Shown: positions 185 to 32,925, counted from the first letter of the stretch. The stretch: DNA of 32,925 nucleotides from Candidatus Nanohalobium sp. (GCA_042217545.1 JBDGSM010000024.1:20374-53298), one strand, 5' to 3'. Program-made: numbers and translations. The notes: generated from the letters alone by a model not told the origin.

Positions 185-346
185 TGCGGTGTGTAAAGGC
201 CTTTGACCGGAGAGTTTTTTAAATCGGACTATGGTGCCTGGATTCCGTCAGAGGTCTTCGTTTTCGGCAAGACTATCTGGTTTTCCGAAGTCTTGACCGG
301 CTGTTTTACCGGCAGTTATAATAGATTTTGTCGATTTAGTAAAGTC

Positions 347-1217
347 ATGTCGGTCACTATCGACGATGACTACCGTGAAAGTTTCTCTGACTGCGAACCG
401 GGAACCCTTCAAGACAGGATGACCGTTCTGAACGAGGATCCCTCTCAGTACGATGAAGAGGCGCAGGAAGAGCTCCTCGCCGAGTTCATCTACGCCCTGG
501 AGCAAGGCGATGTCCGAGCTGCAGAACGATACGATGGCGAATGGGAGGCCAACCCGTGGGTGAAGGAAGGGATACTGTCGATATTCGGTCTTGCGGAAAA
601 CATGGAAAGAGAAGACACGGAAAACGGCGAGATATACCACGATGTCATGCCGACGAGGAACGTCGAAGAGTTCCTGGAGAAAGGAGCCAGGAACACCCCA
701 GGAACAACACTGAGAGTAGGAAACTACTTCGGCGACGGCACAACGGTCATGAGAAGCTTACGTCAACATTGGAGCCTATGTAGACGACGACACGATGGTC
801 GACTCAAACGTCACGTTCGGATCAGCCGCACAGATGGGAGAAGACGGACACGTAGGAGCAAACACGACGATCGGCGGCGTACTCGATCCCGCGGAGAAAA
901 GGCCTGTCGTGATAGGTGACAACGTATCAATCGGCGCGGGAAGCCGCATAACCAGCGGAGCAGAGATCGGTGACCGCGTCAACACCGGAGAAGACCTGCT
1001 TCTCAACCCCAGCATCGAAGTATACGACCTCGTGAACAACCAGATCCTGGAAGGAGAAATCCCGAGCAACAGAACAGCATTCAGAAGAACCAAAGAATCC
1101 AGCGTAAGCGACCACGAACTCTTCGACGAAGACGAATCAGTCCAGAAACCAATCGTCGTAGCAGTAGAATACGACGAAGACGCAGTAGAGCTGGAAGAAG
1201 AACTGAGGATGGACTAG
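347..1217 (+). pseudogene. dapD: Tetrahydrodipicolinate N-succinyltransferase, split by a +1 frameshift near 753-759 (pseudogene, recoding or sequencing error)
   Basis: First frame has WEANPWVKEGIL...YHDVMP...R.GNYFGDGTTVM; second frame continues YVNIGAYVDDDTMVDSNVTFGSAAQMG...IGGVLDP...LEEELR, typical of DapD. Confidence 0.85.
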
Positions 1218-1226
1218 AGAAGGCCT

Positions 1227-2282
1227 TCAGCTCAGGAAACTTTCGGCAACGGAGACAGCAGTCTTCCCCGCTTTTTTGACCTCTTCTTTCTCCACGTATT
1301 CTCTTTTGGAGTGAGCGACACCGCCTTCCCCATCTTTCAGGACGCCAGGTCCGAAGACAGCGGTAGGGATCTCTGGAGCGAAGTAAGAGGCCTCACACAC
1401 AGCCGTGAAAGGCCTCAGTTCTCCGTCGGCGTGTTCCTCCAGTTCATTGACCAGTTCGCTGTCTTCAGAGGTTCTGAAAGCTCCGAGGAGTGGAGAGTTG
1501 TTCGCGGCCCGGTCAACAGATACTTCAGCTGGTGTATCGATATTCCTGATAAACATCTCCAGCCTCTCCATGAACTCCTCCATACTTTCCCCAGGTACAC
1601 TTCTCCTGTCGATCCTCACCTTACAGGTATCAGGGACAACGTTCGAGGACTTGCCTCCTGAAACGATCGTTGGCGTCAATGTAGGCCTCCCCAGCTCCTC
1701 ATCGGAACTGCCGGAGTCAAAGTTCTTCAACAAGTTTATGATCTTTGAGGCCTCCGAGACCGCGTTGACACCTGACTCAGGTTCTGCGGCGTGAGCGTTC
1801 TCCCCTTCAACCTTTATCTCCACCTCGAAACGTCCTCTCGAAGCGTTGCATGCGTCAAGGCCTGTCGGCTCGCCGACCACGACAGCATCAGGATCAAGGC
1901 CCAGCTCACCTATGGCCCGGGACTCTGTCTCCTCGTCAGGAGTCAAAGCCAGAGAAAGACGGCCTTCGCCCATATCAGCCTCAACAAAAGCCTTCAGCAT
2001 CGAGGCCAGAGGCCCTTTCGCGTCACAGGAACCTCTACCATAGATCTTTTCCTCGTCCTCCCTGAACTCGACATGAGGAGAAACCGTATCCATGTGAGAG
2101 TTCAGGACGAGGTGAGGTCTTCCAGAACCTTTCGAAGCGATCAGATTCCCCGAGGAATCCACCTCGGCCTCGATTTCATGATCCTCAAGAACCTGAAAGA
2201 TCATCTCCCGGAACCCATCCACAGATTCATGTGAAGGCGTTCTGACAGCTTCCCTCAAAAATTCAAGCTCGTCGAAGCTAAT
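1227..2282 (-). CDS. dapE: M20 peptidase, ArgE/DapE family (probable succinyl-DAP desuccinylase); start uncertain (ATT 2282 or ATG 2318)
   Basis: SHMDTV, GRGSCDAKG, DEE, GEPT and C-terminal AHS motifs; located in the DAP cluster. Confidence 0.8.
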   Translation of the reverse strand: MSFDELEFLREAVRTPSHESVDGFREMIFQVLEDHEIEAEVDSSGNLIASKGSGRPHLVLNSHMDTVSPHVEFREDEEKIYGRGSCDAKGPLASMLKAFVEADMGEGRLSLALTPDEETESRAIGELGLDPDAVVVGEPTGLDACNASRGRFEVEIKVEGENAHAAEPESGVNAVSEASKIINLLKNFDSGSSDEELGRPTLTPTIVSGGKSSNVVPDTCKVRIDRRSVPGESMEEFMERLEMFIRNIDTPAEVSVDRAANNSPLLGAFRTSEDSELVNELEEHADGELRPFTAVCEASYFAPEIPTAVFGPGVLKDGEGGVAHSKREYVEKEEVKKAGKTAVSVAESFLS

Positions 2283-3498
2283 CCTGATCCACCTCGAAAC
2301 CAGTTCCGTGGAAGACATCGCTCCAGTCCTGGCCCTCCCGGACAAGCTCTGCCCCACCGTCCTCGATTTTGACCTCGGGTGGCATAGGCCTCGTGTTCCA
2401 GTTCGAAGCCATCGCAAAACCATAAGCGCCGACGTCTCTTATCGCCAGAAGATCGCCTCTACCGACCTTCGAGATCTCCCTGTCCTCAGCGAACGTGTCA
2501 GTGTTCTCACATACAAGGCCTACAACATCGACAGTGAAGCTATCCTCGGAAGGATTCACAGCCTCTATCTCGTGATACGCATCGTAGAGCATAGGCCTCA
2601 GGAAATGATGCATACCGGAATCAAGGCCTACATACGTCTTCTCCTTCTCAAGTACGTCCTGTACCTGAGCGATCAAGGTTCCAGACTGGGCGACCAGGAA
2701 ACGACCCGGCTCCATCATGACCTCAGGATTCCCGAGATCGAAACCTTCCAGGGCCTCTGAAACGTTTTCAGCTACTTTTTCAACGTCGAGTTCATCTTCT
2801 TCAGGCCTGTAAGGTACTCCCAGGCCTCCACCTATATCTATGAACTCGAACTCGATATCCAGTTCTTCTGAGATGTTCTCTGCGATCTCGCAAAGCTTCC
2901 TAGTAACTCTTCCGAAGTACTCCGCCTCCAGGACTCCGCTGCCGGTCATCACGTGGATACCGAATCTTTCCACACCGGCTTCCTTTGCTTTTCTGTAGGC
3001 CTCTAATGCATTCTCTTCTTCGACTCCAAACTTGGAGCCTCCGCCGAGTTCAAGGCCGAAACTTCCCTGCCCTATACCAGGATCTATTCTAAAGGAGACT
3101 CTTTCAGAAAGCTCTTCTGCCCGTTCAAAGGCCTTAATCGAGTTAAAATTCAGAGTAACGTTTTTCTCAGCAGCAAACTCAAGCTCCTCCTGTGGCGGGA
3201 AAGGAGCAGTGTAGATGATATTCTCCGGATCGTTAAATTTCAGTGCGAGCTCCAGTTCTGCCCTGCTGGCACAGTCAAAACCTGCTCCCTCCTCTGAAAG
3301 GAGAGAAAGAACGGATGGGTTAGGATTAGCCTTAACAGCGTAGTTGACACTCGATTTATCGAACTCCTCTGCGAAGGCCTCCGATAACCTGCGGTACTGA
3401 TCGTTTATCCTGTTAAAATCGTAGACATAAAGGGGAGTACCGTATTCTTCCGCAACATTTTCTGCTTCAAGGCCTCCTATCTCAAGCTTCTCAGTCAT
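2278..3498 (-). CDS. lysA: Diaminopimelate decarboxylase
   Basis: YGTPLYVYD, YAVKAN (PLP lysine), SKFG, DIGGG, EPGR, CENTD, GAYG..M.SNWN; SD-like AGGAG before ATG 3498. Confidence 0.96.
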   Translation of the reverse strand: MTEKLEIGGLEAENVAEEYGTPLYVYDFNRINDQYRRLSEAFAEEFDKSSVNYAVKANPNPSVLSLLSEEGAGFDCASRAELELALKFNDPENIIYTAPFPPQEELEFAAEKNVTLNFNSIKAFERAEELSERVSFRIDPGIGQGSFGLELGGGSKFGVEEENALEAYRKAKEAGVERFGIHVMTGSGVLEAEYFGRVTRKLCEIAENISEELDIEFEFIDIGGGLGVPYRPEEDELDVEKVAENVSEALEGFDLGNPEVMMEPGRFLVAQSGTLIAQVQDVLEKEKTYVGLDSGMHHFLRPMLYDAYHEIEAVNPSEDSFTVDVVGLVCENTDTFAEDREISKVGRGDLLAIRDVGAYGFAMASNWNTRPMPPEVKIEDGGAELVREGQDWSDVFHGTGFEVDQD

Positions 3499-3538
3499 CC
3501 TGATCTCCTGATAAAGAAAGAAGATGGTTGAAAGGTTT

Positions 3539-4990
3539 TCATTCTTCCTCACCCACCATCGGGAACAGCAGCACATCCCTGATCGACTCCTGACCTGTCA
3601 GGATCATCACCAGGCGATCGATCCCGATACCGAGGCCTCCGGTCGGCGGCATGCCTAACTCGAGAGCTTCTACAAACTCCATGTCCAGAGGATGAGCCTC
3701 GTCATCTCCCTGCTCCTGACGTTCCTGTTCCCTCTCAAAGTGCTCACGCTGCTGGACCGGATCACGCAGCTCGGTGTACGCGTTCGCCAATTCCATACCG
3801 GCGACGAAGGACTCGAACCTCTCGATAAGGCCTTCCTCGCTCCTGTGGTCCATGCAGAGAGGCGTGGTCTCGGTCGGATAATCCGTGATATGGGTCGGCT
3901 GGACCAGTTCCTCCTCCGCGACCTCCTCGAAGATCTCCGCGATCGCAAGGCCTCGCTCGAACTCGCTTTCAAGCTCTACACTAAGTTCATCCATCGCTCC
4001 CCGGAGTTCCTCGTCGCTCATCTCGCTTACTTGAAGGCCTCCGTACTCCTCTATGGCTTCGTGCATAGTCATCCGTCTCCAAGGCGCCGAAAGGTCTATC
4101 TCCTCGCCCCGGTACTCGACCGTACTTGAGCCTGTCACTTCTTCCGCGATGTGTTCGACGAGTTCTTCCGTCAATTCCATCATGTCCTCGTAGTCGGCGT
4201 AGGCCTGGTAGAGCTCCATCATCCGGAACTCCGGGTTGTGCGTCGTGTCGATCGACTCGTTCCGGAAGTTCGTCGCCACTTCAAAAATTCGCTCGTATCC
4301 GCCGATGATGAGTCTTTTGAGGTAAAGCTCCGGGGAGATCCTCAGGTAAGCGTCCATGTCCCTGTCGTTCACATAGGTCTCGAAAGGCTCGGCGTTCGCA
4401 CCTCCATAGACAGGCTGGATGGTCGGTGTCTCCACCTCCATGAAACCATCATTTTCCAGGAATCTTCTCAGCTCGGAGATAATCTCGCTTCTCTGCCTGA
4501 ACCGATCCCTTGCGTCCATATCCATCGTTAAATGGAGAGGCCTGTCCCTGTACCTCAACTCCTGATCTTCGACACCGAAGTGCTCCGAAGGTACAGGTCT
4601 GACAGCGGTCGTCAGAACCTCGACCTCGGAGGCCTGGAGCGTGAACTCCTCTCTATCGGTGTATGTCAAGGTTCCCGTGACACCTATGAAGTCTCCTCTG
4701 TAAACATCTTCAAGAGTCTCCAAGGCCTCATCGTTCTCTCTGACCATGACCTGGATCTCCGCTCTCGCGTCTCTCAGGTCGAGGAAGACCAGTTCTCCGA
4801 AATCCCTGATCTCCATCACTCTTCCGGCTGTCGAGAAACTCTCTTCAGGAAAATCTTCTGAGGCTTCTTCCGTATCAAATTCCTGAAGTTCTTCTATTGT
4901 ATGTGAGCGGTCGAAGTCGTAGGCGAAGGCCTCACCGTTTTCTCTTCTCTGCCTGAGGTGTTCCAGGCGCTCCTGTCTCTCGTCAGACAT
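3539..4990 (-). CDS. lysS: Lysine--tRNA ligase, class II
   Basis: OB-fold N-terminus; GGANAEPF, YLRISPELYLKRL..GG, FRNE...HNPEF, ELANAYTEL, GMPPTGGLGIGIDRL. Confidence 0.97.
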   Translation of the reverse strand: MSDERQERLEHLRQRRENGEAFAYDFDRSHTIEELQEFDTEEASEDFPEESFSTAGRVMEIRDFGELVFLDLRDARAEIQVMVRENDEALETLEDVYRGDFIGVTGTLTYTDREEFTLQASEVEVLTTAVRPVPSEHFGVEDQELRYRDRPLHLTMDMDARDRFRQRSEIISELRRFLENDGFMEVETPTIQPVYGGANAEPFETYVNDRDMDAYLRISPELYLKRLIIGGYERIFEVATNFRNESIDTTHNPEFRMMELYQAYADYEDMMELTEELVEHIAEEVTGSSTVEYRGEEIDLSAPWRRMTMHEAIEEYGGLQVSEMSDEELRGAMDELSVELESEFERGLAIAEIFEEVAEEELVQPTHITDYPTETTPLCMDHRSEEGLIERFESFVAGMELANAYTELRDPVQQREHFEREQERQEQGDDEAHPLDMEFVEALELGMPPTGGLGIGIDRLVMILTGQESIRDVLLFPMVGEEE

Positions 4991-5039
4991 GGGAGACACC
5001 GGAAAGTATAGCTGAAGCTGTGTTTAGAAGGTTTTCAGT

Positions 5040-5056
5040 GCTCAGAATTTCTGAGC
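5040..5056. promoter_or_regulatory. Perfect inverted repeat GCTCAGAA-T-TTCTGAGC in the lysS/dapA divergent region (candidate operator)
   Basis: 8-bp arms with a 1-nt spacer, about 50 bp upstream of lysS. Confidence 0.4.
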
Positions 5057-5232
5057 TGTTTGCATACGTGTCGGCGCTTAAAACATCCACCGTTCATTGT
5101 AGATCTATATTCCGGGATGAACCTTAAATACTCTTCGACTTTTTCAACTAAAACAGCATTATATTTTGAATTCCGAAGGATATTCTTCGAAAAAGAGAAG
5201 AACTTTTAAGGTTTCGGAACTGTAAGGCCTGT

Positions 5233-5319
5233 ATGGAAGACGACTACCTCCGGTTGATGAAGACCCATATGACTGCCTTCGAAAATCCTGAAGAAAATTC
5301 GAACTCCGTACGGCGGTGA
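5233..5319 (+). CDS. Putative 28-aa leader ORF upstream of dapA (MEDDYLRLMKTHMTAFENPEENSNSVRR)
   Basis: ATG about 25 nt downstream of TATA-like TTTTAAG; stop codon lies in the GGTGA SD-like site of dapA. Confidence 0.35.
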   Translation: MEDDYLRLMKTHMTAFENPEENSNSVRR

Positions 5320-5325
5320 AGGCCT

Positions 5326-6267
5326 GTGAGTTTCACGCCCGAAGGGGTTTTTCCCGCGCTGCCGACGCCGATAGATGAGGATGGATCGATAAACTATGAG
5401 GCTGCAAGAGAGCATATCGAGTATCTGGAGGAGAACGGTGTTCACGGGATCGTTCCTGCTGGATGTACCGGGCACGCCGCAACACTGGGCGATAGAGGAA
5501 GCGAGAACCTGGAGTACGACGAACACGTGGAATTCGTTTCGCGCATCGCGGAGATGACGGATCTGCCTGTTATCGCCGGGGACGGGATGAACTCGACACA
5601 ACAAACACTGGAACTTGCGACTCGTATCGAGGAAGAGGCTGATATCGACGCACACCTGATGATCTCGCCTTACCAGAACTGCCCTCCACAGGACCTTATA
5701 ATCGAACATTACAGGACTCTCGCGGATGAACTAGAGAAGCCGATCATTGCGTACAACGTGCCAGGAAGAACAGGAAGGAATATCGACGCGGAAACGACTC
5801 TGGAGCTTGCGAGAATCGACGGAGTGATCGGGATCAAGGAGGCCTCTCTGGACTACGAGCAGATCCACGAGATCGGGATGCGGCTTGAAGAAGAGGACCT
5901 GGAAGATTTCTTCCTTGGATCTGGAGACGACGCCGCGAATCATTTCGTCTTCCAGCAGGGAGGCAGCTTCGCCATCTCAGTATCCGCGAACGTTCATCCC
6001 GAGGCCTCGGTCGAGGTCTGGAGACATGGATACGAAAACGATGATTACCAGAGAGCTTTCGAGCTGAACAGGGAGTTGAGGCCTCTGCATGATGCGATGT
6101 TCCAGGAGGGCGAGAAGAACCCGATAAGCGTTCAGTACGCGGTCAACCTTCTAGGCTTCGACTTCGGAACTCCACGTGCGCCGCTGAACAGGAGGCCTAG
6201 AGAGGATGAGGAGTACAGTAACCGGAGCGAGATCAGTAACGTTTTAGAGGATCAAGGCCTAATCTAG
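5326..6267 (+). CDS. dapA: 4-hydroxy-tetrahydrodipicolinate synthase
   Basis: GVFPALPTP, variant GCTGH loop, YNVPGRTG, GIKEAS (Schiff-base lysine); GTG start. Confidence 0.93.
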   Translation: MSFTPEGVFPALPTPIDEDGSINYEAAREHIEYLEENGVHGIVPAGCTGHAATLGDRGSENLEYDEHVEFVSRIAEMTDLPVIAGDGMNSTQQTLELATRIEEEADIDAHLMISPYQNCPPQDLIIEHYRTLADELEKPIIAYNVPGRTGRNIDAETTLELARIDGVIGIKEASLDYEQIHEIGMRLEEEDLEDFFLGSGDDAANHFVFQQGGSFAISVSANVHPEASVEVWRHGYENDDYQRAFELNRELRPLHDAMFQEGEKNPISVQYAVNLLGFDFGTPRAPLNRRPREDEEYSNRSEISNVLEDQGLI

Positions 6268-6276
6268 AGGTTAAAG

Positions 6277-7029
6277 ATGAGAATAGCAGTAACCGGCGCC
6301 ACGGGCCAGATGGGAACCAACGTCATAAAAGTCGCCAGAGACCGCGGAGAAACGATCTCGCTGGCTGTGGACAGGGAAGAAACCGAGAGCAGAGGCCTTG
6401 AAGTGAAAGAGGATGAAAACTTCGAGGAACTTCTCAGGGAGAGAGACGTCGATGTTATCGTGGATTTTACGGTCCCTGCCGGAACAATGAAGTACCTGGA
6501 AGCAGCGAGAGAAACTTCTATTCCGATCGTCATCGGGACTACAGGCTTCTCGGAGGAACAGGAACGCAGGATCGAGGAAGCTGGTAAGGAGATAGCTGTG
6601 CTGAAGGCCTCGAACTTCTCTCCCAGCATCAACGTGATGAGAGAGCTGGTGAAAGAGGCCTCCGGGAAGCTTGAAGATTATGATATCGAGGTCACCGAGA
6701 CACACCACAACAGGAAGCGGGACGCTCCGTCCGGTACCGCGAACACGTTTTTAGACGATATAAGAGAGGCTCGCGGAGATTTCGAGGAGGTTCACGGACG
6801 TGAAGGAGAGCAGCCGAGAGAAGAAGGCGAGGTCGGTGTACATGCGAAGAGAGCCGGCGACATCAAGGGAACGCATGAAGTCCTCCTCGCCGGGGATGAA
6901 GAAGTGCTGAAGGTCAAGCATAGAAGCGAGTCGCGCGAAGTTTTCGCTTCTGGAGCGCTGAAGGGTGCGGAATGGCTTCAAGGCCGTGATGATGGTTTCT
7001 ACAGTTTTTCGGAGGTGCTTGAGGAATGA
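6277..7029 (+). CDS. dapB: 4-hydroxy-tetrahydrodipicolinate reductase
   Basis: GATGQMG, DFT, VIGTTG, ETHHNRKRDAPSGTA. Confidence 0.97.
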   Translation: MRIAVTGATGQMGTNVIKVARDRGETISLAVDREETESRGLEVKEDENFEELLRERDVDVIVDFTVPAGTMKYLEAARETSIPIVIGTTGFSEEQERRIEEAGKEIAVLKASNFSPSINVMRELVKEASGKLEDYDIEVTETHHNRKRDAPSGTANTFLDDIREARGDFEEVHGREGEQPREEGEVGVHAKRAGDIKGTHEVLLAGDEEVLKVKHRSESREVFASGALKGAEWLQGRDDGFYSFSEVLEE

Positions 7030-8216
7030 GGATGGTCGCCAAGTTCGGAGGAACAAGCCTCAAAGATGGAGACAGGATAGAGAACGCCGCCGACAGCATA
7101 AAAAATGCTGTAGAGGAAGGCCATGAAGTAGCGGTAGTGGCCTCCGCCATGGGTTCGACGACTGATGATCTTCTGGATAACATCAATTTCAACGCGGAGG
7201 ACGAGGATCGGGACGAGATCGTCTCGATGGGGGAACGCACAAGCGTAAGGATGTTGAAGGCAGCTCTGAATGCTAGAGGCCTTGAAGCTGAGTTCTACGA
7301 GCCAGGTAAAGAGGGCTGGCCGGTCTTCGTTGATTCTGAGGGCCGTGTAGACAAGGAGATTACCAGAGAAAAAGCGGAGGAGCTTGCTGAAGGCCTTGAG
7401 TCCGAGGTTCCTGTGATTACAGGTTTCCTGGCGGAAGATCATGAGGGAAACGTTACTACGCTCGGCAGGGGCGGTTCTGACACTACAGCGGTTATGCTCG
7501 GTAATTACATGGATGCGGACAGGACTGCGATTGTTACAGACGTCGAAGGCGTGTTGACAGGTAATCCTGAGATCGTTGAATCCACGCACAACGTGGGGGA
7601 GATCAGTATAGACGAGTTAAGAGATCTATCGTTCAAGGGTGCTGAGGTCATCGCTCCGGAGGCCTTGCCATATAAGACAGATGAGATGGAGGTCAACGTG
7701 GTGCATTTCCAGAACGAGGACCTGCTTGAGTCTGGTACCAGTATAGAGGGCGAGTTCGAACGTATAATCGACACTGACGAGAAGGAGTTCGCCTGCTTGA
7801 CAGTGGCGGGCAGGGAGATCCGGAACGAGCCAGGGATACTCTCGAAGCTTTCCTCTGCACTGGAGGAGGAAGACGTGAACATCGAGGCGGCTTCGACAGG
7901 TATGGACAGCGTCAGCTTTTTCGTGGACGAAGAAAGAGCTGAGGAAGCGAATCAGGCCTTACATGATCTTGTACTGGAGAGGGAGAAGATATCCTCGGTC
8001 ACCGTGGACGATGGGATCGGTGTTATCCGTGTGGCCGGGGGGAAGCTTCCGGACAGGCCTGGCGTTGTAAGAGAGATCGTGGATCCTCTGGCTGAGGCGA
8101 ACATCAATATACATGAGATCGTGACCTCTGCCTCCAGTGTTATCATGTTCGTCGGGTACGAAGTACGGGAGAAAGCACTGCGGATAGTACAGGAGAACCT
8201 TGGCGTCACGGAATAA
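7026..8216 (+). CDS. lysC: Aspartate kinase with ACT domains
   Basis: KFGGTS, SAMGSTTD, TTLGRGGSDTTA, TDVEGV; ATGA overlap with dapB. Confidence 0.95.
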   Translation: MRMVAKFGGTSLKDGDRIENAADSIKNAVEEGHEVAVVASAMGSTTDDLLDNINFNAEDEDRDEIVSMGERTSVRMLKAALNARGLEAEFYEPGKEGWPVFVDSEGRVDKEITREKAEELAEGLESEVPVITGFLAEDHEGNVTTLGRGGSDTTAVMLGNYMDADRTAIVTDVEGVLTGNPEIVESTHNVGEISIDELRDLSFKGAEVIAPEALPYKTDEMEVNVVHFQNEDLLESGTSIEGEFERIIDTDEKEFACLTVAGREIRNEPGILSKLSSALEEEDVNIEAASTGMDSVSFFVDEERAEEANQALHDLVLEREKISSVTVDDGIGVIRVAGGKLPDRPGVVREIVDPLAEANINIHEIVTSASSVIMFVGYEVREKALRIVQENLGVTE

Positions 8217-8225
8217 CGTGATACT

Positions 8226-16224: not shown

Positions 16225-16229
16225 GGTCC

Positions 16230-24718: not shown

Positions 24719-26170
24719 TTACTTGTTCTTGGGCTTGAGGTTGTAATAGCCTCTCTGGAGGTAGTCTTCCCCGAGGTCCGGGTACCAGTCCTCGATGTTT
24801 TTCCAGAGGTCGCTGTGCCTGTTGTTGACATGTCTCTCCACCGGCATGGTTTCCTGGCCTGCCAGATCTCTCATCAGCTTGTTGACGTGTAGTGCGGAGA
24901 CCTGTTCGTCGAGGCCTGACCATCTTGCGATCAGGTCGGCCATAGATCCCGGACTACCGTTGAGTTCCGGTGAAAGGTAGACTGTGCCGTCCTCTTCTTC
25001 GTACTCCTTAGCTCTCTCTATGTAATGGTCTGGGAGGTGCTGTATATCCTCCATGCTTGTTTCTATCAGGTCCATACCGATCTTGAAAGGTTTCCTGTCC
25101 AGGTCCTTGTTGTAGTTGAACTCGTCAGGCCCGAAAGAGCCGATTATATCATGTGCCAGGTTTCTGGCCTGTCTTCCCAGAAGTGCGGAGTTGTTCTCCG
25201 CCCTCCTGTTGAACTCCGGCATAGGTATCTTCTCGTTGTAGTTGACGTCTACAGGTTCGACGCGTGGCTCTGCACCGGGACCAGGCCCTCTGTAGGCCTT
25301 CAGGGCCTTTCCGTATACTCTGTAGTCTGTTCCGTTTATGACGCCGTCCATCTGCGAGAGATTGGTCCTGATGTCGTCTTCAGTATTGTTTCTTCTCTCC
25401 GCATTGACTATCTGGTCTCCTACCGTGATAACTCTCAGGTCGCTGTCGTGAGGTATCTCAGGCTGTACAATGTATTCGTCGGGATCTATCAGCTCGTCTT
25501 GGTCTTCTCGGTCTATTCCTCCTTCAAGGAATTCCGCTACTTCGTGCATATCGTCGAATGATTCGACGCCGTCTCCGAATGAGCCGTTGTACGGTTTTGC
25601 GACGTACCCGTGCTCTCCTCCATCTCCCAGTTCCTGTTCGACGTACTGGGGGCCTCCTTCCAGGTATTCGTCTCCTTTCAGGCTTGGGATGCCGGGAAGG
25701 CCTTTGTCCTCGAAATGTTTGGATGTCTCGTATTTGTCCTTGAACAGGTTGATCATGTCGATGGGGTTGATGACGACGTCGTCTTCGCTGTTCTTCAGAT
25801 AATCCTTGAACTCCGGTTTCGCATGTTTTCTTGCCTTGTTCGACATGTTGATGACGTAGTTGTCTCCTTCCTCCAGTCCGTGGAGTTCGCGGACGTTCTG
25901 CCATGATTCTGGTGTGTGGTAGTGGTTGCTCCAGTTCGCCATAGGAGGGCCTTCATGTGAAAAACGGTCCTGGAGGCCTGAAGTCCCTGCCAGAACGTTT
26001 CTGCGGGACTGGTAGAAAGGCTTTCTCTCATCTGAAAGCTGGCCGTAGCTCATGAATGCCATCGGTTCATCCCTGAACAGGGCGTAAGGTTCTTTGCTGT
26101 CGCTCTGCCAGCCGTCAATGTCCTCAAACTCAAGTTGCCAGCCAGAACTGATACCTCCGACCGTAGACAT
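24719..26170 (-). CDS. Enlarged RimK-like ATP-grasp ligase
   Basis: DKYET, VAKPYNGSFGDGV, IVQPEI, DLRVITVG, RTNLS, GMDL, ELNGSPG. Confidence 0.8.
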   Translation of the reverse strand: MSTVGGISSGWQLEFEDIDGWQSDSKEPYALFRDEPMAFMSYGQLSDERKPFYQSRRNVLAGTSGLQDRFSHEGPPMANWSNHYHTPESWQNVRELHGLEEGDNYVINMSNKARKHAKPEFKDYLKNSEDDVVINPIDMINLFKDKYETSKHFEDKGLPGIPSLKGDEYLEGGPQYVEQELGDGGEHGYVAKPYNGSFGDGVESFDDMHEVAEFLEGGIDREDQDELIDPDEYIVQPEIPHDSDLRVITVGDQIVNAERRNNTEDDIRTNLSQMDGVINGTDYRVYGKALKAYRGPGPGAEPRVEPVDVNYNEKIPMPEFNRRAENNSALLGRQARNLAHDIIGSFGPDEFNYNKDLDRKPFKIGMDLIETSMEDIQHLPDHYIERAKEYEEEDGTVYLSPELNGSPGSMADLIARWSGLDEQVSALHVNKLMRDLAGQETMPVERHVNNRHSDLWKNIEDWYPDLGEDYLQRGYYNLKPKNK

Positions 26171-26254
26171 ACCTGTATAACTGCAAGGTAACAAATAAAT
26201 AAGTGGAAAAATTTGTTACGGAGAAAAAACAAAAAAGACCGGGGTTAGGCCTTT

Positions 26255-28147
26255 CTAGTAGACTATCGGCGGCCTCGGGACAGGACCTGGTAGACCCTGT
26301 TTTTCCCGGAATCTGATGTTTCTAACTGTTTCCCAGTTGTTTTCGTTGATTACTGTCGCGTTGCTGTCGCCGAAGATATAGAGGTAGTCGTTGACATATG
26401 TTGCGCGTTTGGGATCGGTCAGGTTGACTTTTTTAACCTCTCTTAGGCCTTTACTGTAGCTGAAGATGTGACCTCCGCTGCTTCCAGGGAGGAAGAAGGC
26501 CCTGTGTTTCCTGTCGATCTTGAACGCATGGTGAGAGTTTGAGATGCTGGAGTACCAGTCGTCCAGCACCTTTGAATCCTCTACTTCAGGTTTCTTACCC
26601 GAAACGTCAAAGATCACAGCCTTCACTTTTCCGTCTTCTTTTCCTATGCCAAGGATCCGATCACCGGATAGTGGATGTAGGTAAGAGGAGAAGCCAGGTA
26701 GCTTCAGCTGCCCCACCAGTTCAGGACTTTCGGGATCAGAGATATCCACCATGTGGAAGGGATCCACGTGTTTGTACGTAACTATGTAGGCCTTGTCGTC
26801 AATGTACCTGACCGCGTAAATCTGTTCGTTGAGTCCCAGTCCCTGAATCTGTCCTTTCCTCTCTAGATCTCTGTCGAGTATGTAGAGGTCGTTGGCTGGT
26901 TCGGCGTTGAACCTCCATCCCAGGCCTGATGTCGTGGCTATCCTGAGGTTTCCTTCTTTCTCGCTGAGTGAGAACTGGTTATTGACTTTTCCAGGTACTG
27001 ATCCCTGTGCCTGAAGACTCAGGTCCAGGCTGAACCGGGCTATACCGGTCTTGGAAAGTTTTCTCTTCCTCTCCGTGGTGTAGTTGCTCCATGCGTTCTG
27101 GAATTTTTCCCTGGCTTTCTTCCTGTCTGCTCTGGAGAGCCGGTTCATGTATCTCTGGATGGCCTTGTTGACCTCGATCTTGAGAGCCTGGTCGCTGAGG
27201 TTGTACCCCTGTAACTGGTCGATCCTGTCCAGGGTTTCCTGGTCAAAATACTTGCTACCCTCATCTCCAAGGAAGTTCATCATCACCTCCATCCTTGACT
27301 TCCTTGTTAGATACGTCAGGTAGATCGAATCCTTCGAAACGTAGATTACCGTGTTCCAGCCGGAGCCGACGAAGCCAGCAGTCTTCTCTACTTCTCCGCT
27401 TTCAGCATCAATCTTCACTATATTATACGTCGTGGAACTCCCCTTGCCAGATGAAGGCCTGTAGAAACTTGTACATGAAATCGCCACGCCACTCATAGGC
27501 CTTACGGGACATGGTGCTGATACATCAACGTTCTTCCTCAGAACGAGATAGATGCTTGAGTTTATCTTTCTGGCTGAGACAGTGCTGCTGGAGTTCAGCT
27601 CCAGGTTCCAGTTCCTCTCGTAACTGTCCCTGTCGTAGGAAGTGATGTTTCCACCGAGGAAGACTACCGAGTTATTGCTGAGGAACATCTTCCCGCTCTC
27701 AGGGATCTCGGCAGTCCTGGAGAAGTTCTCTGCGGGAAGAGGCCTGAAAACTGAAGTATTACGTCTTCCGAACCGTTTTCCATAGTAGTAAAAATTCTGC
27801 TCTCCGGAGTAGAAGATCTTCTCCCCGGCATTCTTCAGTATATCCGGTTCTCCTACGCCTTCAACCTGCACGTTAGTGGATGAATGCCTTGACGTATCTG
27901 ACCCTGAAATACCTGGCGCGCTCTGAGAGGCCTTCATACCCGACTCTGCCTGAAGCCCGACGGCTCCGCCAGATGCAACACTTCCAGACGATTGAGGATA
28001 GGATGAAACGTATTCCTTAAACTGTTTCCTGGAACTAAATTTCTGGATATCTCCCGTCCCGCTCGCTGAGGGGCTCTGCACCACCATAAGGAACGCAGAT
28101 GTCAAAAGCAGTGTTGCTGCCGCCGAAACCGCGAAATAATTCTTCAT
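26255..28147 (-). CDS. Secreted beta-propeller domain protein (COG4880-like)
   Basis: Signal peptide; STNVQVEGVGEPDILK, NQFSLSE, LRIATT, EQIYAVRY, VDPF, LKLPGFSSYLHP. Confidence 0.88.
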   Translation of the reverse strand: MKNYFAVSAAATLLLTSAFLMVVQSPSASGTGDIQKFSSRKQFKEYVSSYPQSSGSVASGGAVGLQAESGMKASQSAPGISGSDTSRHSSTNVQVEGVGEPDILKNAGEKIFYSGEQNFYYYGKRFGRRNTSVFRPLPAENFSRTAEIPESGKMFLSNNSVVFLGGNITSYDRDSYERNWNLELNSSSTVSARKINSSIYLVLRKNVDVSAPCPVRPMSGVAISCTSFYRPSSGKGSSTTYNIVKIDAESGEVEKTAGFVGSGWNTVIYVSKDSIYLTYLTRKSRMEVMMNFLGDEGSKYFDQETLDRIDQLQGYNLSDQALKIEVNKAIQRYMNRLSRADRKKAREKFQNAWSNYTTERKRKLSKTGIARFSLDLSLQAQGSVPGKVNNQFSLSEKEGNLRIATTSGLGWRFNAEPANDLYILDRDLERKGQIQGLGLNEQIYAVRYIDDKAYIVTYKHVDPFHMVDISDPESPELVGQLKLPGFSSYLHPLSGDRILGIGKEDGKVKAVIFDVSGKKPEVEDSKVLDDWYSSISNSHHAFKIDRKHRAFFLPGSSGGHIFSYSKGLREVKKVNLTDPKRATYVNDYLYIFGDSNATVINENNWETVRNIRFREKQGLPGPVPRPPIVY

Positions 28148-28216
28148 ACAGAAGTATTTCTCCACTACTTGTTTTAAAATGTGAGGCCTCTGTTCGGAAA
28201 AAATAGAACTCTCAGG

Positions 28217-28783
28217 TTACTCTACCTCGATATCCACGTTTCCGACATTCTGCTTGACCAGCGGTGCAGCCAGGTTGTAGAACTTGTCCGAAAGTGCCTT
28301 CTGCCGTCCAAGGAAGAATGAATTTGCCAAAGGTAATTTCTCTGCAAAGACCTGACGGCCCTTCAGAACGTAGTCGCTGTCCTGATAAGGATCTTCAAAC
28401 GCCAGAACGGCTTCCTCTATCGTGGCTCCTCCTGTTTCTCCGTCCTCAACCAGCCTGGAAGGAGAGTTCCTGTAACCTATATCAAAGAGCTGTCCCCGGC
28501 CATCCATGAATCCTGAAGGCCTGTTATCCTGCATTATCTGCTGCATTTCCTGGATCTGTTCTTCATCGACTTTGAGAACCTCTTCTTCCTCCACTCTGGG
28601 ATCGCTGAAAAGTTCATGGTATGCGTTAAGCGATAGAGCACTGTAGGCCTCCTTGCTGTTCGTTATTTCTTCTTCCAGGACCCCTTCAAGGCCCCATGGA
28701 TCGCTTGCGTACGTTCCCATTTCAGGGTAGGGATCAAGTTTTCTTTCAAGGTCGACATCCCGGTCTGTCTCGTATCTAATCAT
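28217..28783 (-). CDS. Hypothetical acidic protein
   Basis: 188-aa ORF with 8-nt overlap with the upstream gene. Confidence 0.7.
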   Translation of the reverse strand: MIRYETDRDVDLERKLDPYPEMGTYASDPWGLEGVLEEEITNSKEAYSALSLNAYHELFSDPRVEEEEVLKVDEEQIQEMQQIMQDNRPSGFMDGRGQLFDIGYRNSPSRLVEDGETGGATIEEAVLAFEDPYQDSDYVLKGRQVFAEKLPLANSFFLGRQKALSDKFYNLAAPLVKQNVGNVDIEVE

Positions 28784-29090
28784 GGCCTTCCACCAGCGGT
28801 TCCCTGAGATCCGCTATCTTGCCGAAAACTTCACCATATACTTCAGGATCCTCGATTATCTCATAAGTTCTCCTGTCGCCGTCCTGCATTAGGAGGCCTG
28901 CTTCACTAAGTACTTCAAGAGCTCTAAGGCCCTGATCGTTCCTGTCAAGATCTTCTGGTCTGAGCTCGTCGTTTTCCCTGAAGGATTTATCGTACTCCTC
29001 CGCCCGGCTCACGATCTCGTAGAACGCGACACCGGAGGTATTTACTATTTCCTTGTATGCCTGTTCAGCATCTTTGTTCTCGAACTCCAT
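28776..29090 (-). CDS. Hypothetical protein, possibly winged-helix
   Basis: RALEVLSEAGLL...RRTYEI resembles a wHTH wing. Confidence 0.6.
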   Translation of the reverse strand: MEFENKDAEQAYKEIVNTSGVAFYEIVSRAEEYDKSFRENDELRPEDLDRNDQGLRALEVLSEAGLLMQDGDRRTYEIIEDPEVYGEVFGKIADLREPLVEGHD

Positions 29091-29152
29091 CAGGATATCT
29101 ACACTGAACTGTAACTTTTATTATTCTTACCTAACAACGCTGGTTTTTTCCT

Positions 29153-29620
29153 GTGCCCGATAAAAAGTTGGACCTGGAGACATCAATCAACGGGGGAACG
29201 ACAGTGGATTTCAAAGATCTCGAGAAAGGCCTTAAAATCCTGTTCAACGACAGGAAGACTCCGCTGGAGGTTGTGGAGAAAGAGGATGAGAAAGCTATCG
29301 TTGAAGGACCTAACGGCGGGCGTTACGAGGTATATACGGATGAAGGAACCTTGCTCGTGTCGAAGGAGGGCAGCAGACGTTACTCCAGTTACTGTGAGGA
29401 TCTTCGTTCCGTAGGTGAGTGGCACCATGAGGAAGACACCTGGACTCATTCCAGGACCGGTGCGGAAGTTTCTCTGGAGAAAAAGAGCAACGGGTTCTGG
29501 ACTGTCAGGACTGAAGGCCTTGAGGACGAGATGGATACTCCAATGTACGGTTACTCCGACAGGGAGTTCGCTGAGGAGGACGCAGAGAAGTTTGTGAAGA
29601 ATCATCCTGAAGGACGGTAA
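29153..29620 (+). CDS. Hypothetical protein
   Basis: 155-aa acidic ORF, GTG start (exact start uncertain). Confidence 0.7.
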   Translation: MPDKKLDLETSINGGTTVDFKDLEKGLKILFNDRKTPLEVVEKEDEKAIVEGPNGGRYEVYTDEGTLLVSKEGSRRYSSYCEDLRSVGEWHHEEDTWTHSRTGAEVSLEKKSNGFWTVRTEGLEDEMDTPMYGYSDREFAEEDAEKFVKNHPEGR

Positions 29621-29660
29621 CCCGGGCGAAATGGTCTTTCTCTAAAAGCTTACGCCCCAG

Positions 29661-30293
29661 ATAAAAAATGAAAGGCCCTCGGTAACGAACGCAGAACAAC
29701 CTGCACTGGACGTTATAGAGAGGAAAGCGGAGGATAAAAACTCCCGGCTGACAGAACCGGATGAATACATGGAAAAAGAAGCTGAAGGGCCTCTGAAGCT
29801 GAGATATGCTGGTGAAACCTTTGAATCAGGCCTGAAAGCCGGTTATCAGATAGAGAACATGAACACCGCGATCGAAGCCATAGAACGTTCAGGCCTTGAA
29901 GCACAGGAAGAAGCAGTTATAGCGGCATTGAATGAGATCAACGTACCTGGCAGAATGGAGAAGATATCGGAAAGGCCTGAGCTGTTCGTGGATGGAGCAC
30001 ACAACAAGGAAGGCATGAAGGCCCTGACTTCTTCGATAGACAGTTTTGACACCATGGTCTTCGGCTGCATGGAGAAAAAGCCCTACAGAGATATGATCGG
30101 GCTTCTAAGACCTCACACGGAGAACATGATTTTTACAAGGCCTGAAAAAGATCATGCCTGGAACCCTGAATCAGTTGAAGATGGTAAAATAGTTGAAAAT
30201 CCTTTTAAAGCTGTCAAAGCTGCAGAAGGCTGCACACGGGTTACCGGTTCTCTTTACCTGGCAGGAGCAATCAGAGAAAAGTTCAGGGACTAG
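29661..30293 (+). pseudogene. folC: 5'-truncated folylpolyglutamate synthase (C-terminal part only)
   Basis: YQIEN..TA, PGRME, VDGAHN, VTGSLYL; homology extends in frame to IKNERPSVT at 29661, upstream TAA at 29643; P-loop domain absent. Confidence 0.75.
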
Positions 30294-30296
30294 AGT

Positions 30297-30869
30297 TCAG
30301 TGTTTTTCAGCGAACTCCCTGAAGCTGTTATAGGTCTCCGAGGCAAAAACTTTTTTCGTAATGCTATCCGTTATCAGGACGGTTCTGAGGCCTGCTCTTT
30401 TGCCAGCGACGAGATCCTCTATCGAATCGCCTACATAGATAAATTCTTTGCGTCCAAGGCCTGATTCCGTTATTATTTTTTCGATTCCTTCGGTGCTTGG
30501 CTTTCTGCGCACGTTTCTCGGTGTTACCACTTCGTCCAGCAGCTGGTCGAGACCTAGCTCCTCGATCTTGTAATCTGTGCTCGGGTGAGGTGCGTTTGTC
30601 AGACCTGCCTGGAATCCGTCTTCTCCCTTCAGGAAGTTTTTGACTCCTGGGGCAAGCTTTATGAGGCCTTTCTCAGTGTATTCACGGGTTTTCTTCAGGT
30701 GGTTGCTGCTGTAACGATGTTTAAGCTGTTTCAGGATTGATCCGGGCTGTTCCTGTGAATCTTTGTTTCTTTGACTTTTTAGAAGTTCCCTGAACGTCAT
30801 GTATGCGGCGTAATGTGGGACATCGGAGTTCTTGATCAGTGTATCGTCCAGGTCGTAGATATAGTTCAT
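30297..30869 (-). CDS. HAD superfamily hydrolase
   Basis: DLDDTL, LTN, KP, YVGDS..D..AG. Confidence 0.9.
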   Translation of the reverse strand: MNYIYDLDDTLIKNSDVPHYAAYMTFRELLKSQRNKDSQEQPGSILKQLKHRYSSNHLKKTREYTEKGLIKLAPGVKNFLKGEDGFQAGLTNAPHPSTDYKIEELGLDQLLDEVVTPRNVRRKPSTEGIEKIITESGLGRKEFIYVGDSIEDLVAGKRAGLRTVLITDSITKKVFASETYNSFREFAEKH

Positions 30870-30981
30870 GTACCAGGGAGCCTTTGGAAAAAGTTCTTGG
30901 CCTTTATCTTGAAATTTATTTTGGAGTCGATAAAAGTAAGAAAAGATAGGTTGTAGAAGCGCGGCTTCAGGCCTTGCGGCT

Positions 30982-31173
30982 TTATGCCTCGACTACGTTG
31001 ACTGCTTTTGGTCCTTTGTCGCCTTCCTCTGTGTCGAACTCGACTTCTGTTCCTTCCTCAATCTCGTCGATGTCGAGATCGTTTACGTGGAAGAATACAT
31101 CGTCGTCCATGTCGTCAGTCTCTATAAATCCGTACTTCTTCTCGTCGTGGAAGAACTTGACTTCTCCTTGCAA
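30982..31173 (-). CDS. cspA: Cold-shock protein (CSD), TTG start
   Basis: GEVKFF...KYGFI, DVFFH, GDKGPKAVNV; SD AGGAGGTG 8 nt before TTG. Confidence 0.92.
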   Translation of the reverse strand: MQGEVKFFHDEKKYGFIETDDMDDDVFFHVNDLDIDEIEEGTEVEFDTEEGDKGPKAVNVVEA

Positions 31174-31285
31174 AAGTAATACACCTCCTAGATAAAACCG
31201 AGTTGGACAGTAACATTTATAATATCGCTGATGATTGGTGGTGGAATGGGAAGATTTAAGCATATTGGACACCTCAAGTTTTTCT

Positions 31286-31735
31286 ATGGAAATCTCCAGT
31301 AATGCGTTCAGTGATGGAGGCAGGATCCCAGAAAAATACGGTTACAAACGGGACAACATCCATCCTCCGCTCAAGTTCTCTGATATACCTGAAAGCGCCG
31401 AGTCACTCGCCATAGTAGTTGACGATCCTGATGCAAAGGAGCCTGCAGGGAAGATATGGGAGCACTGGTTGATCTGGAATATCTCACCTGAGACCACTGA
31501 GATAGACGAGGGACAGCAGCCTATAGGTGCCCGTGAAGGAATGAACGACTTCGGGAAGAGAGGATACGGAGGGCCAAATCCTCCGGACGGTGAGCATGTA
31601 TATAGGTTCAAGCTCTACGCACTCGACAGAGAACTGAATATCAACGATGCATCGGACAGAGAAGACCTGAAAAATGAGACGGAGAACGATATAATCGAGA
31701 AAGCAGTCCTGAAAGGATCATTCAAACCGATCTAA
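31286..31735 (+). CDS. YbhB/YbcL (PEBP) family protein
   Basis: DDPDA, HWLIWNI, GMNDFG..GYGGPNPP, HVYRFKLYALD. Confidence 0.93.
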   Translation: MEISSNAFSDGGRIPEKYGYKRDNIHPPLKFSDIPESAESLAIVVDDPDAKEPAGKIWEHWLIWNISPETTEIDEGQQPIGAREGMNDFGKRGYGGPNPPDGEHVYRFKLYALDRELNINDASDREDLKNETENDIIEKAVLKGSFKPI

Positions 31736-31740
31736 ACGTC

Positions 31741-32010
31741 TCACCTCTTGATCTCAAAGGCCTCAATAAACTCAGGCGCCTCTTCCTCAAGCTCTACTTT
31801 CTCAACTGAAGCGATACTAGGGCCTTTCCTCGCCCACTCCATTACTTCGGCGACGTCGTCTTCCTCGCCTTCCAGGACCGCTTCCACCCTGCCGTCTTCA
31901 AGATTTTTCACCCATCCGGTTACATCATTGTTTTTCGCTCTACGCCTCATAGAGGCACGGAAGCCGACACCCTGTACGTTTCCGGAGATCCAGAGATGAA
32001 CCTGTTTCAT
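31741..32010 (-). CDS. acyP: Acylphosphatase
   Basis: GNVQGVGFR, GWVKNLEDGRVE. Confidence 0.95.
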   Translation of the reverse strand: MKQVHLWISGNVQGVGFRASMRRRAKNNDVTGWVKNLEDGRVEAVLEGEEDDVAEVMEWARKGPSIASVEKVELEEEAPEFIEAFEIKR

Positions 32011-32058
32011 ACAAAGAAGAAGAGATATGTATGGAGAAAAAAGGTGTGGTCGAAGGCC

Positions 32059-32790
32059 TTACTTCACGACCCTCTCCGAACTCGTTGCTCTATCTCCGAT
32101 CGAGGTCGTTGAGTAATGTTTCTCGGCCTGGTGGAAGAAGTTGTCAAAGATTTTCAGGACCCGTTTCGCCCTGTGGAAGTTCGCATCGTTCACTTCCCTC
32201 ATCAACCTCTCCTTCTTCTCCTCAGGCATATCTTTCGTACGTATCGCCTTCTCCTTGATCGGCGGGGTCAACTCCGGATGGAACTGCACGCCGTAGACCG
32301 GCTTATCCCTATGCTGGACTCCCTGAACTGCCTTATCCGTCTCAGCAACGCTTTCCAGCTCCTCGGGCATATCTGTAACCTTGTCCTGATGCGTGTTGAA
32401 CGGGTATTCCACCGAGTCAAGACCTTCAAAAATCTCACTCTCTCTGAAATCTACAGGCCTGTAACCGATCTCATAACCGTCCATCTGCACGACTTCAGCT
32501 CCCATGGCCTTCGCGATAACCTGGTGACCGAAGCAGAGGCCTAACACAGGGATGTCATCCTCGATGTACTCCCTGGTCTTCTCGACTAATGCGTTGATCC
32601 AGGCCTCGTCCTCGTAGATTCCTGATGTCGAACCGGATATTATCACGATCTCGGGATCCTCCGGGAACTCCTGTTTCATGGCCTTGTACTTCTCGATGTC
32701 GTCGCCCAGCAACTCGTTGAACCTGTTGCTGTAACGGGGCCAGTCCAGCGTCGCATCTATCACAGAAACCCTGTGAACTGAGTTAAACAC
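32059..32790 (-). CDS. Class I glutamine amidotransferase (GMP-synthase-like); start uncertain
   Basis: ISGS, GLCFGHQ, HQD, GVQFHPE. Confidence 0.88.
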   Translation of the reverse strand: MFNSVHRVSVIDATLDWPRYSNRFNELLGDDIEKYKAMKQEFPEDPEIVIISGSTSGIYEDEAWINALVEKTREYIEDDIPVLGLCFGHQVIAKAMGAEVVQMDGYEIGYRPVDFRESEIFEGLDSVEYPFNTHQDKVTDMPEELESVAETDKAVQGVQHRDKPVYGVQFHPELTPPIKEKAIRTKDMPEEKKERLMREVNDANFHRAKRVLKIFDNFFHQAEKHYSTTSIGDRATSSERVVK

Positions 32791-32925
32791 TGGAGAACAC
32801 CGGAGAAAAGGCCTGATCAGTGGTTTTGGAAAAGTTAGAACTGGCACTATGGAAATTATCTTGAACTGTCTGCCAGAACGCATCCACCCTGTTCTACAGG
32901 ATCAGCACCGTACTTCATGTGTAAA

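Follow-up and report, generated by a model that had tools for sequence, protein, structure and literature searches.

Hyper-abundance of the palindrome AGGCCT across a Candidatus Nanohalobium genome and in part of its phylum

The stretch of DNA analyzed here, referred to as the window, comprises 32,925 nucleotides from Candidatus Nanohalobium sp. (GCA_042217545.1, JBDGSM010000024.1:20374-53298) and corresponds to positions 20374-53298 of contig C17 in genome G000, an assembly of 1,032,751 bases in 82 contigs (92% complete, 0.5% contamination). The element under study is the strandless palindrome AGGCCT, which occurs in 152 exact copies between positions 197 and 32814. Across 100 dinucleotide-preserving shuffles of the window the mean was 8.86 copies (sd 2.99, largest 16), and none of the 100 attained the observed count. 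Sites are on average 216 bp apart, with a widest gap of 789 bp. When mapped onto the 37 open reading frames (ORFs) accepted in the window, 133 sites fall within ORFs and 19 outside them, corresponding to 4.40 per kb in coding and 7.12 per kb in non-coding DNA. All three registers are represented (AGG-CCT, 27; xAG-GCC-Txx, 47; xxA-GGC-CTx, 59), as are genes on both strands (35 sites on plus-strand and 98 on minus-strand genes).

These counts agree with the initial annotation of the window, which had reported about 150 copies against about 8 expected, in genes of either strand, in every register and at some 20 intergenic positions. One detail was wrong: a copy had been placed inside a tRNA-Ala(CGC). 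The single tRNA found by ARAGORN (positions 110-184, minus strand) is a tRNA-Ala with the anticodon GGC, which contains GGGCCT and no AGGCCT; the site in question, at 197-202, falls 13 nt outside it. The densest spacer, 388 bp long, carries four copies (15092, 15186, 15248 and 15413, together spanning 15092-15418) and is flanked by an orc1/cdc6 gene (14013-15041, minus strand) and the next gene (15430, plus strand). With orc1/cdc6 as its neighbor, this spacer is a candidate replication origin.

Across the whole of G000, AGGCCT occurs 3,699 times, or once per 279 bp, and is the commonest hexamer. Its observed/expected ratio (O/E) under a first-order Markov model is 13.0, and reaches 16.3 and 17.2 in two relatives, G001 and G003. 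All 82 contigs carry the word, at 1.33-5.85 per kb (median 3.61), and the excess is therefore not an artefact of the window's contig; 12 other genomes are enriched too, which removes the concern, raised with the initial annotation, that the enrichment might be limited to one contig. The excess is specific to the hexamer. In G000, 58% of all GGCC tetramers lie inside AGGCCT (58-65% across genomes rich in the word), the other NGGCCN palindromes are scarce (GGGCCC 39, CGGCCG 72, TGGCCA 106), and in rich genomes the other NGGCCN words stand at the level of a poor relative, G011. The bases flanking AGGCCT in G000 show a mild palindromic preference (position -1 is A in 41% and T in 11% of cases), and the commonest palindromic extensions differ by lineage, being AAGGCCTT in G001 and GAGGCCTC in G003.

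The word was surveyed in 70 species genomes of the phylum, with the reversed word as a control. Twelve of the 70 are AGGCCT-rich, at 2.0-4.75 per kb, and belong to four genera: g1 (3 of 3 genomes), g26 (4 of 5), g29 (3 of 3) and g2 (2 of 6). One further g26 genome, G040, is intermediate (0.95 per kb), and in the remaining genomes AGGCCT is near or below the control. Within g2, rich and poor species are about equally distant by DNA identity (66-76%), and the median protein identity of G001 is 63.6% to the rich G003 and 62.7% to the poor G011. This mixture of rich and poor among equally close relatives indicates that the trait is gained or lost fast relative to genus-level divergence. The AGGCCT trait thus switches on and off among close relatives.

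Some poor genomes are strongly depleted in AGGCCT relative to the reversed control (G018, 55 vs 362; G017, 73 vs 491; G051, 97 vs 344; also G022 and G036). High-scoring C5 methylases are encoded by G017 and G051, and N4/N6 methylases by G018. The depletion looks like restriction avoidance of the very word that their relatives hoard.

The contribution of coding sequence was evaluated on rough gene calls (1,045 ORFs, 83% of G000). These genes contain 2,973 AGGCCT sites, compared with 574 +/- 19 after permutation of synonymous codons within genes and 286 +/- 18 after permutation of codon order. A first-order codon (dicodon) model predicted 537 and 831 sites in the two registers that span three codons, where 995 and 1,460 were observed; the remaining register is untouched by a dicodon shuffle by construction and lies outside this test. 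The excess is thus smaller under the dicodon-preserving shuffle and still there; its disappearance under such a shuffle had been named in the initial annotation as grounds for giving the idea up. Under an order-4 Markov model the O/E in G000 is only 1.11. The words that make up both the dicodon and the order-4 models overlap AGGCCT.

A further measure is the fraction of places permitted by the encoded peptide that are filled with AGGCCT. In G000, 518 of 693 Arg-Pro dipeptides (75%) are spelled AGG-CCT, where codon usage predicts 13%, and permitted tripeptides in the other two registers are filled to 60% and 71%. Across relatives (G001 as a whole genome; 800 kb each of the rich G003 and the poor G011), the filled share over all registers is 74.6% in G001 (3,761/5,043) and 73.3% in G003 (2,693/3,674) vs 8.5% in G011 (168/1,965), an odds ratio of ~31 and a scaled bias of ~3.4. 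Permitted places are themselves more frequent in rich genomes (~4,500 per Mb vs 2,456 in G011), and the proteins have therefore shifted toward the word; the commonest peptide differences between G001 sites and orthologous codons are KP to RP, EP to RP and xGI to xGL. Outside called genes the density is 5.0 per kb in G001 and 5.45 in G003 (O/E 20 and 22), compared with 0.22 per kb in G011 (O/E 1.2). Codon or amino-acid bias cannot explain AGGCCT: the mark acts at the DNA level and genome-wide, and permutations, permitted-place fill and spacer density agree with the initial annotation on this point.

The kind of force at work can be read from the neighbors of the word. The nine one-mismatch classes have O/E values of 0.65-1.9 in G000 and 0.61-2.1 in G001. 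In these two genomes AGGTCT/AGACCT, the C-to-T neighbors, stand at 0.96-1.11 and are not depleted, AGGGCT/AGCCCT at 0.61-0.65, and the other seven classes at 0.83-2.1. Half-site variants AGGCCN are slightly above the G011 level and likewise not drained. At 1,336 positions orthologous to G001 sites, the poor G011 has AGGCCT at 32 and a single mismatch at 221, and among the mismatched states are both transversion partners (AGGACT 55, AGGCAT 30, AGGGCT 23) and transition partners (AGACCT 28, AGGTCT 21). Vsr-type repair would change a single transition class and leave the corresponding neighbor empty; the pattern instead fits a fixation bias. AGGCCT is raised as a whole word without draining particular neighbors, as expected if the bias operates at fixation, through selection or biased conversion, and not through one-step mutation or repair. 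That a real fixation bias operates on the DNA itself is, in our judgment, nearly certain.

Of the aligned G001 sites, 1,274 of 2,258 recur in G000 and 519 of 1,411 in G003. At positions with an unchanged peptide, AGGCCT is kept at 84% of G001 sites in G000 and 81% in G003, compared with 8% in the poor G011. High occupancy in both genomes of a rich pair would by itself account for much of this sharing, without common descent. Structural RNA is resistant to the word: in G001 the small-subunit rRNA has no site and the large-subunit rRNA four. Recently acquired DNA lacks the word. A 5.5-kb stretch of G001 (L100:10530-16065, G001:C1:890530-896065) next to an intron-bearing tRNA gene holds no AGGCCT where ~22 are expected. 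It encodes a pyridoxal-phosphate enzyme with a rhodanese domain, an ornithine/diaminopimelate-type decarboxylase, CbiA-like and CobW-like NTPases and a ParB-like protein, has homologues in G011 and none in G000 or G003, and is probably a recent import, a foreign-looking metabolic operon. Other bare DNA consists of low-GC orphan blocks and of the type I restriction-modification (R-M) island of G003.

The window also encodes a helicase-nuclease pair of the AddAB type. The first gene (18690-21422, minus strand) specifies a 910-aa AddA/AdnB-like protein with a UvrD-type helicase and a C-terminal PD-(D/E)XK nuclease (Pfam UvrD-helicase 174.6 bits, UvrD_C 127.1, PDDEXK_1 24.1); it scores below the cut-offs of the NCBIfam pcrA, addA and recB models, and its matches in the PDB are PcrA, UvrD and AdnB chains. 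The second gene (21419-23986, minus strand) specifies an 855-aa AddB/AdnA-like partner whose PD-(D/E)XK nuclease (PDDEXK_1, 39.1 bits) covers residues 480-731, and which has no PDB match by sequence. The two genes overlap by 4 nt in the window, and an overlap is found in G000, G001 and G003; in G011 (C1:615098-622100; L162:15098-20000 onward), three small genes (160, 212 and 134 aa) part them. All 13 of the rich or intermediate genomes have the AddB-like protein, vs 26 of 57 others (Fisher p 2.9e-4, a value that ignores phylogeny and so overstates the evidence). In genus g2 it was detected in the two rich species but in no poor one (four genomes, 77-89% complete). The pair is thus a candidate co-factor of AGGCCT, by association only. 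The claim of the initial annotation that the effector is not in the window cannot be asserted, as the window encodes an AddAB-type pair that is found in every rich genome.

Directly downstream of the AddA-like gene lie six small ORFs (107-138 aa; 16230-18652, minus strand) with no Pfam or NCBIfam match and with homologues in G001 and G002 only. At 203-9751, adjacent to a class II lysyl-tRNA synthetase, stands a complete-looking diaminopimelate/lysine set (dapD-like, dapE, lysA, dapA, dapB, aspartate kinase, asd and a LysM-type regulator), a surprising gene set for a symbiont usually described as biosynthesis-poor.

Other candidate effectors were sought by gene content, retaining G001 proteins matched in G000 and in 800 kb of G003 and unmatched in 800 kb of G011. 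This filter left out 234 G001 proteins matched in G000 only and retained 102, of which 98 were scanned against Pfam (4 straddle locus borders); most are housekeeping proteins, presumably encoded in the remaining 16% of G011. Neither the filter nor seven individually examined candidates yielded an AGGCCT effector. A small S-adenosylmethionine methylase has orthologues in rich and poor genomes alike. Three DNA-binding candidates (an ArsR-like, a PadR-like and a 299-aa helix-turn-helix-like protein), missing at the syntenic position of the poor relative, occur in poor g2 species. A DUF123 GIY-YIG-type protein is present in 53 of 70 genomes and NucS in 62 of 70, the latter without tracking the word. 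Finally, a Rad50/SbcC-like ATPase with an Mre11/SbcD-like partner is confined to 6 of 70 genomes, 4 of them rich. In G001 this Mre11/SbcD-like phosphoesterase and the 656-aa ATPase lie at L086:9717-12726 (G001:C1:609717-612726), and the ATPase has a mobile-looking distribution (G000, G001, G003, G060, G048 and G014).

Several other iterated words were encountered. The palindrome ACCGGT is raised to 3-6 times the reversed control in nearly all 70 genomes, reaches ~1 per kb in family f4 (G021, G024, G036, G038) and is the top hexamer of G011 (O/E 4.2). TACAGG/CCTGTA is over-represented (O/E 2.6-5.2) in G000, G001, G003 and G011, rich and poor alike. In Natrialbaceae-type loci (L215, L222, L225, L241, L242, L266), CTCGAG is the commonest hexamer (98-164 on both strands per 15-23 kb), which may reflect Leu-Glu codon usage. 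A temperate viral contig, L313 (IMGVR_UViG_3300047319_000951, 21900-32064 of 42,865), which encodes an integrase, carries 33 AGGCCT (O/E 23) and 36 CGATCG in 10 kb, but no more than 2 copies of GCGATCGC. Its integrase is basic, not acidic, and it resembles none of the nanohaloarchaeal proteomes compared, so that AGGCCT iteration extends to an unrelated, non-halophilic element. A second viral contig, L380 (2,088 bases), is a tandem-repeat array with units of ~60 bases and 49 AGGCCT, mostly as TAGGCCTAGGCCT. Among the 80 loci examined of the matches listed in this viral scan for AGGCCT triplets, no nanohaloarchaeal virus was recognized.

A working model can be proposed for these observations. 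A force acting on double-stranded DNA would favor the fixation of a complete AGGCCT wherever one can arise, in genes and spacers alike, overriding synonymous codon choice and pushing conservative amino-acid changes. The palindromic form of the word points to a symmetric reader of double-stranded DNA. Such a reader, a dimeric DNA-binding protein, would belong to DNA exchange or recombination, with AGGCCT serving as a "self" word. DNA bearing the word might be preferentially taken in or recombined, as with uptake sequences and as now proposed for HIP1, the highly iterated palindrome of cyanobacteria; or it might be preferentially spared and repaired by the AddAB-type helicase-nuclease, as with Chi. 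Under either option, alleles with AGGCCT would replace alleles without it. In a host-attached symbiont the word would part the cell's own DNA (~4 per kb) from host-type DNA (~0.1-0.2 per kb).

A recombination-linked or self-recognition mechanism of this kind is our best single guess, held tentatively and with the odds somewhat against it. It is favored because foreign DNA is bare, because the contrast with host-type DNA is ~30-fold, and because an AddAB-type enzyme is present in every rich genome. Among 79 loci around AddB-like genes, the 5 with at least 2.5 AGGCCT per kb are all nanohaloarchaeal, and the other 74, mostly from Halobacteria, have at most 0.55 per kb. Spacing also counts in its favor: close pairs (under 50 bp) and gaps of 400-1,000 bp are fewer than under a Poisson process, and occupancy of permitted places drops to 0.6 times the usual rate if a second AGGCCT lies within 15 bp. 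A more specific version is speculative and rather doubtful: a methylation-free self/non-self system in which a symmetric reader, together with the AddAB-type enzyme or an import route at the symbiont-host junction, would spare or recombine AGGCCT DNA and degrade or ignore the rest, acting as a molecular drive that rewrites the proteome.

A number of observations weigh against this proposal. The enzyme is not sufficient, since 26 of 57 poor genomes possess the AddB-like protein; the distribution across relatives fits necessity of AddAB and not sufficiency. G011 has AddB and no hyper-abundant word of 5-8 bases beyond its mild ACCGGT excess. Contrary to prediction, ACCGGT did not follow AddB within genus g10, the palindrome being mildly raised also in genomes without AddB. 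AddB identity (41-49%) is no higher among rich genomes than between rich and poor ones, rich lineages do not form one clade in a quick AddB tree, and the association could reflect a very small number of evolutionary events. Members of this AddB family (35-40% identity) also occur in haloarchaea, whose AGGCCT density is 0-0.3 per kb. No AGGCCT reader protein was found among the candidates tested, and ComEC (PF03772) was not detected in any of the five genomes searched (4 rich, 1 poor), in a search that did not cover archaeal import systems; to our knowledge, no DNA uptake has been described in nanohaloarchaea. Chi and uptake sequences are not palindromes, and Chi is polar. No polar flank of AGGCCT was found, its 8-mer flanks being mildly asymmetric at most (584 vs 492), and G001 shows neither a two-replichore skew nor GC-skew turning points usable for a test of replichore bias. 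A six-base word is a weak discriminator. Finally, the short-range spacing effect is weak in G003 beyond 15 bp and in part a trivial exclusion of overlaps.

The spacing of the word brings in a rival explanation, in which the sites bind an abundant nucleoid or chromatin protein, or serve a structural role, and even, dense placement is selected for packaging, segregation or domain organization. Sites occur about once per ~250 bp and are somewhat more evenly spaced than under a Poisson process: relative to that expectation, gaps in G001 shorter than 50 bp occur at 0.25-0.8, those of 100-300 bp at 1.16-1.29 and those of 400-1,000 bp at 0.62-0.84. Density is flat along genes, save for a dip in the first 20 coding nt and a 2-fold rise over the 20 nt that follow stop codons, which is trivial because GGCCT freely follows a stop ending in A. 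G001 also displays a 74.5-kb periodicity, matched by 1-4 of 500 block permutations, on a scale like the 10-90 kb reported for HIP1 (PMC5861425). No such peak is seen in the 800 kb of G003, close relatives manage without AGGCCT, and no candidate protein was found, as the ArsR-like, PadR-like and helix-turn-helix-like proteins are shared with poor g2 species. A nucleoid role is accordingly judged unlikely, if the strongest of the alternatives.

A second rival is methylation of the HIP1 type, in which an orphan methylase marks AGGCCT or GGCC and methyl-directed repair or strand discrimination favors the word, as Elhai suggested for HIP1, the enzyme being of an unrecognized family or supplied by the host through a cell-cell bridge. 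HIP1, the closest known phenomenon, goes with orphan methylases (PMC4390886; PMC13756078), and it has been suggested that a nanohaloarchaeon and its host exchange methylases (PMC11001535). Moreover, the AGGCCT-depleted G017, G018 and G051 carry C5 or N4/N6 methylases, so that enzymes specific for GGCC or AGGCCT probably circulate in the phylum. The gene content of the rich genomes speaks against this explanation. C5 methylases (PF00145) are present in 1 of 13 rich or intermediate genomes vs 16 of 57 others, and N4/N6 methylases (PF01555, E <= 1e-8) in 1 of 13 vs 12 of 57. D12-class methylases (PF02086) were found in 0 of 4 rich genomes, and the only real HsdM (PF02384) among the rich genomes tested is that of G003, inside its AGGCCT-poor type I R-M island. 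The rich genomes assembled as single contigs (G001, G003, G057) have neither a C5 nor an N4/N6 methylase, and a search of G000 found no C5, D12-class or real N4/N6 methylase and no Vsr. A 297-aa ORF on contig C19 of G000 with a weak PF01555/PF02384 match was rejected as a DNA methylase; similar weak matches occur in many poor genomes, and its motifs suggest a THUMP-type tRNA methylase. MutS is absent from all five genomes searched (4 rich, 1 poor). The nanohaloarchaeal methylome of PMC11001535, from an organism that may or may not be AGGCCT-rich, reports GDGCHC alone, and the text of that paper contains neither GGCC nor AGGCCT. There is, in short, no recognizable cognate DNA methylase in AGGCCT-rich lineages, and with the C-to-T neighbors undepleted in G000 and G001, methylation-coupled repair, the first mechanism named in the initial annotation, is not supported. 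Its two other options, a chromatin-protein site and a self-recognition tag, keep some probability. We regard the methylation explanation as a little less probable than a nucleoid role.

Less probable by a clear step is a neutral bias in mutation or in very-short-patch-like repair, turning particular near-sites into AGGCCT while the word itself brings no benefit. Such a bias would act alike on coding and non-coding DNA, and imported DNA would fill over time. It could also claim two low neighbors in G003, AGGTCT/AGACCT (O/E 0.45) and AGGGCT/AGCCCT (O/E 0.42); other GGNCC-type words are low there too, however, which suggests a separate cause. The undrained neighbors of G000 and G001, the transversion partners in G011, the lack of Vsr in G000 and of MutS in the five genomes searched, and the failure of NucS to track the trait all make this explanation improbable. 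That the excess follows from codon usage, dipeptide content or composition, or from an artefact in the assembly of the contig, can practically be dismissed: high-order Markov models absorb most of the excess and the dicodon model about half of the sites in its two registers, but the synonymous and codon-order permutations fall 5- to 10-fold short, spacers are denser than genes, relatives with similar proteins leave most permitted places unfilled, and the excess spans all contigs and 12 other genomes.

The recombination-linked "self" word, which we prefer, can be set against four known systems. In the Dcm/Vsr repair of E. coli, a C5 methylase and Vsr raise CCWGG and lower CTWGG, draining the T-for-C neighbor. 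A raised palindrome is common to both cases; AGGCCT in G000 differs in having no C5 methylase, no Vsr (searched in this genome only) and no drained T-for-C neighbor. Chi, which is read by RecBCD or AddAB and marks self DNA, is asymmetric, oriented with replication and enriched a few-fold. It resembles AGGCCT as an over-represented short word, with an AddAB-type pair in the window and in all rich genomes, whereas AGGCCT is palindromic, has no polar flank and fills ~75% of its permitted places, and 26 of 57 poor genomes, as well as haloarchaea, own the enzyme without the word.

The uptake signal sequences (USS) of Pasteurellaceae and the DNA uptake sequences (DUS) of Neisseriaceae are non-palindromic words of 9-12 bases, present about once per kb and read by known competence machinery. 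They are maintained by recombination-coupled drive and not by mutation bias. Like them, AGGCCT is a hyper-abundant, lineage-specific word of genes and spacers, more evenly spaced than chance, to which proteins have been bent and which is missing from recently acquired DNA. It differs in being a palindrome of six bases and in the lack of ComEC in the five genomes tested.

For three decades, the highly iterated palindromes of cyanobacteria have remained a puzzle. HIP1 (GCGATCGC) and alternate palindromes of this kind are treated by Elhai 2015 (PMC4390886), Xu, Lawrence and Durand 2018 (PMC5861425) and Rodriguez-Cruz et al. 2026 (PMC13756078), and HIP1 is now proposed to be an uptake recognition sequence (PMC13756078; bioRxiv 10.1101/2024.09.10.611283). 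The parallel drawn in the initial annotation holds for the defining sequence statistics and breaks down at the methylase. Both are short palindromes and the most over-represented words of their genomes, lie in all frames and in spacers, and occupy sites conserved between genomes. Both are lineage-restricted with exceptions among close relatives and have palindromic flanks that vary by lineage. AGGCCT differs in occurring in archaea and in being another word, of 6 and not 8 bases; it is denser (2-4.75 per kb vs 0.3-2.7 per kb for HIP1; PMC4390886), with a lower fold-excess (13-17 vs 15-300). HIP1 goes with DmtA and DmtC, whereas no cognate orphan methylase was found for AGGCCT. The genomes also differ, those rich in AGGCCT being ~1 Mb and belonging to obligate symbionts; HIP1, by contrast, tends to be lost in cyanobacteria that live in symbiosis (PMC4390886).

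In a literature search whose coverage left out most subscription journals, no report of hyper-abundant AGGCCT in nanohaloarchaea was found. In practical terms, AGGCCT density is a sharp marker for binning rich genomes and for spotting recently acquired DNA. Should AGGCCT prove to be a signal for recombination or self-recognition, it would have a bearing on how the genomes of obligate symbionts are kept distinct from host DNA. The combination of ~1-Mb genomes, a short dense word, the absence of detected methylases and a trait that differs within a single genus (2 rich and 4 poor species) makes an attack on the mechanism by gene content and population genetics practical. Set beside HIP1, and with the methylases that dominate thinking on HIP1 not found, the AGGCCT-rich genomes present a signature of the HIP1 kind in another domain of life, written in a shorter and denser word.

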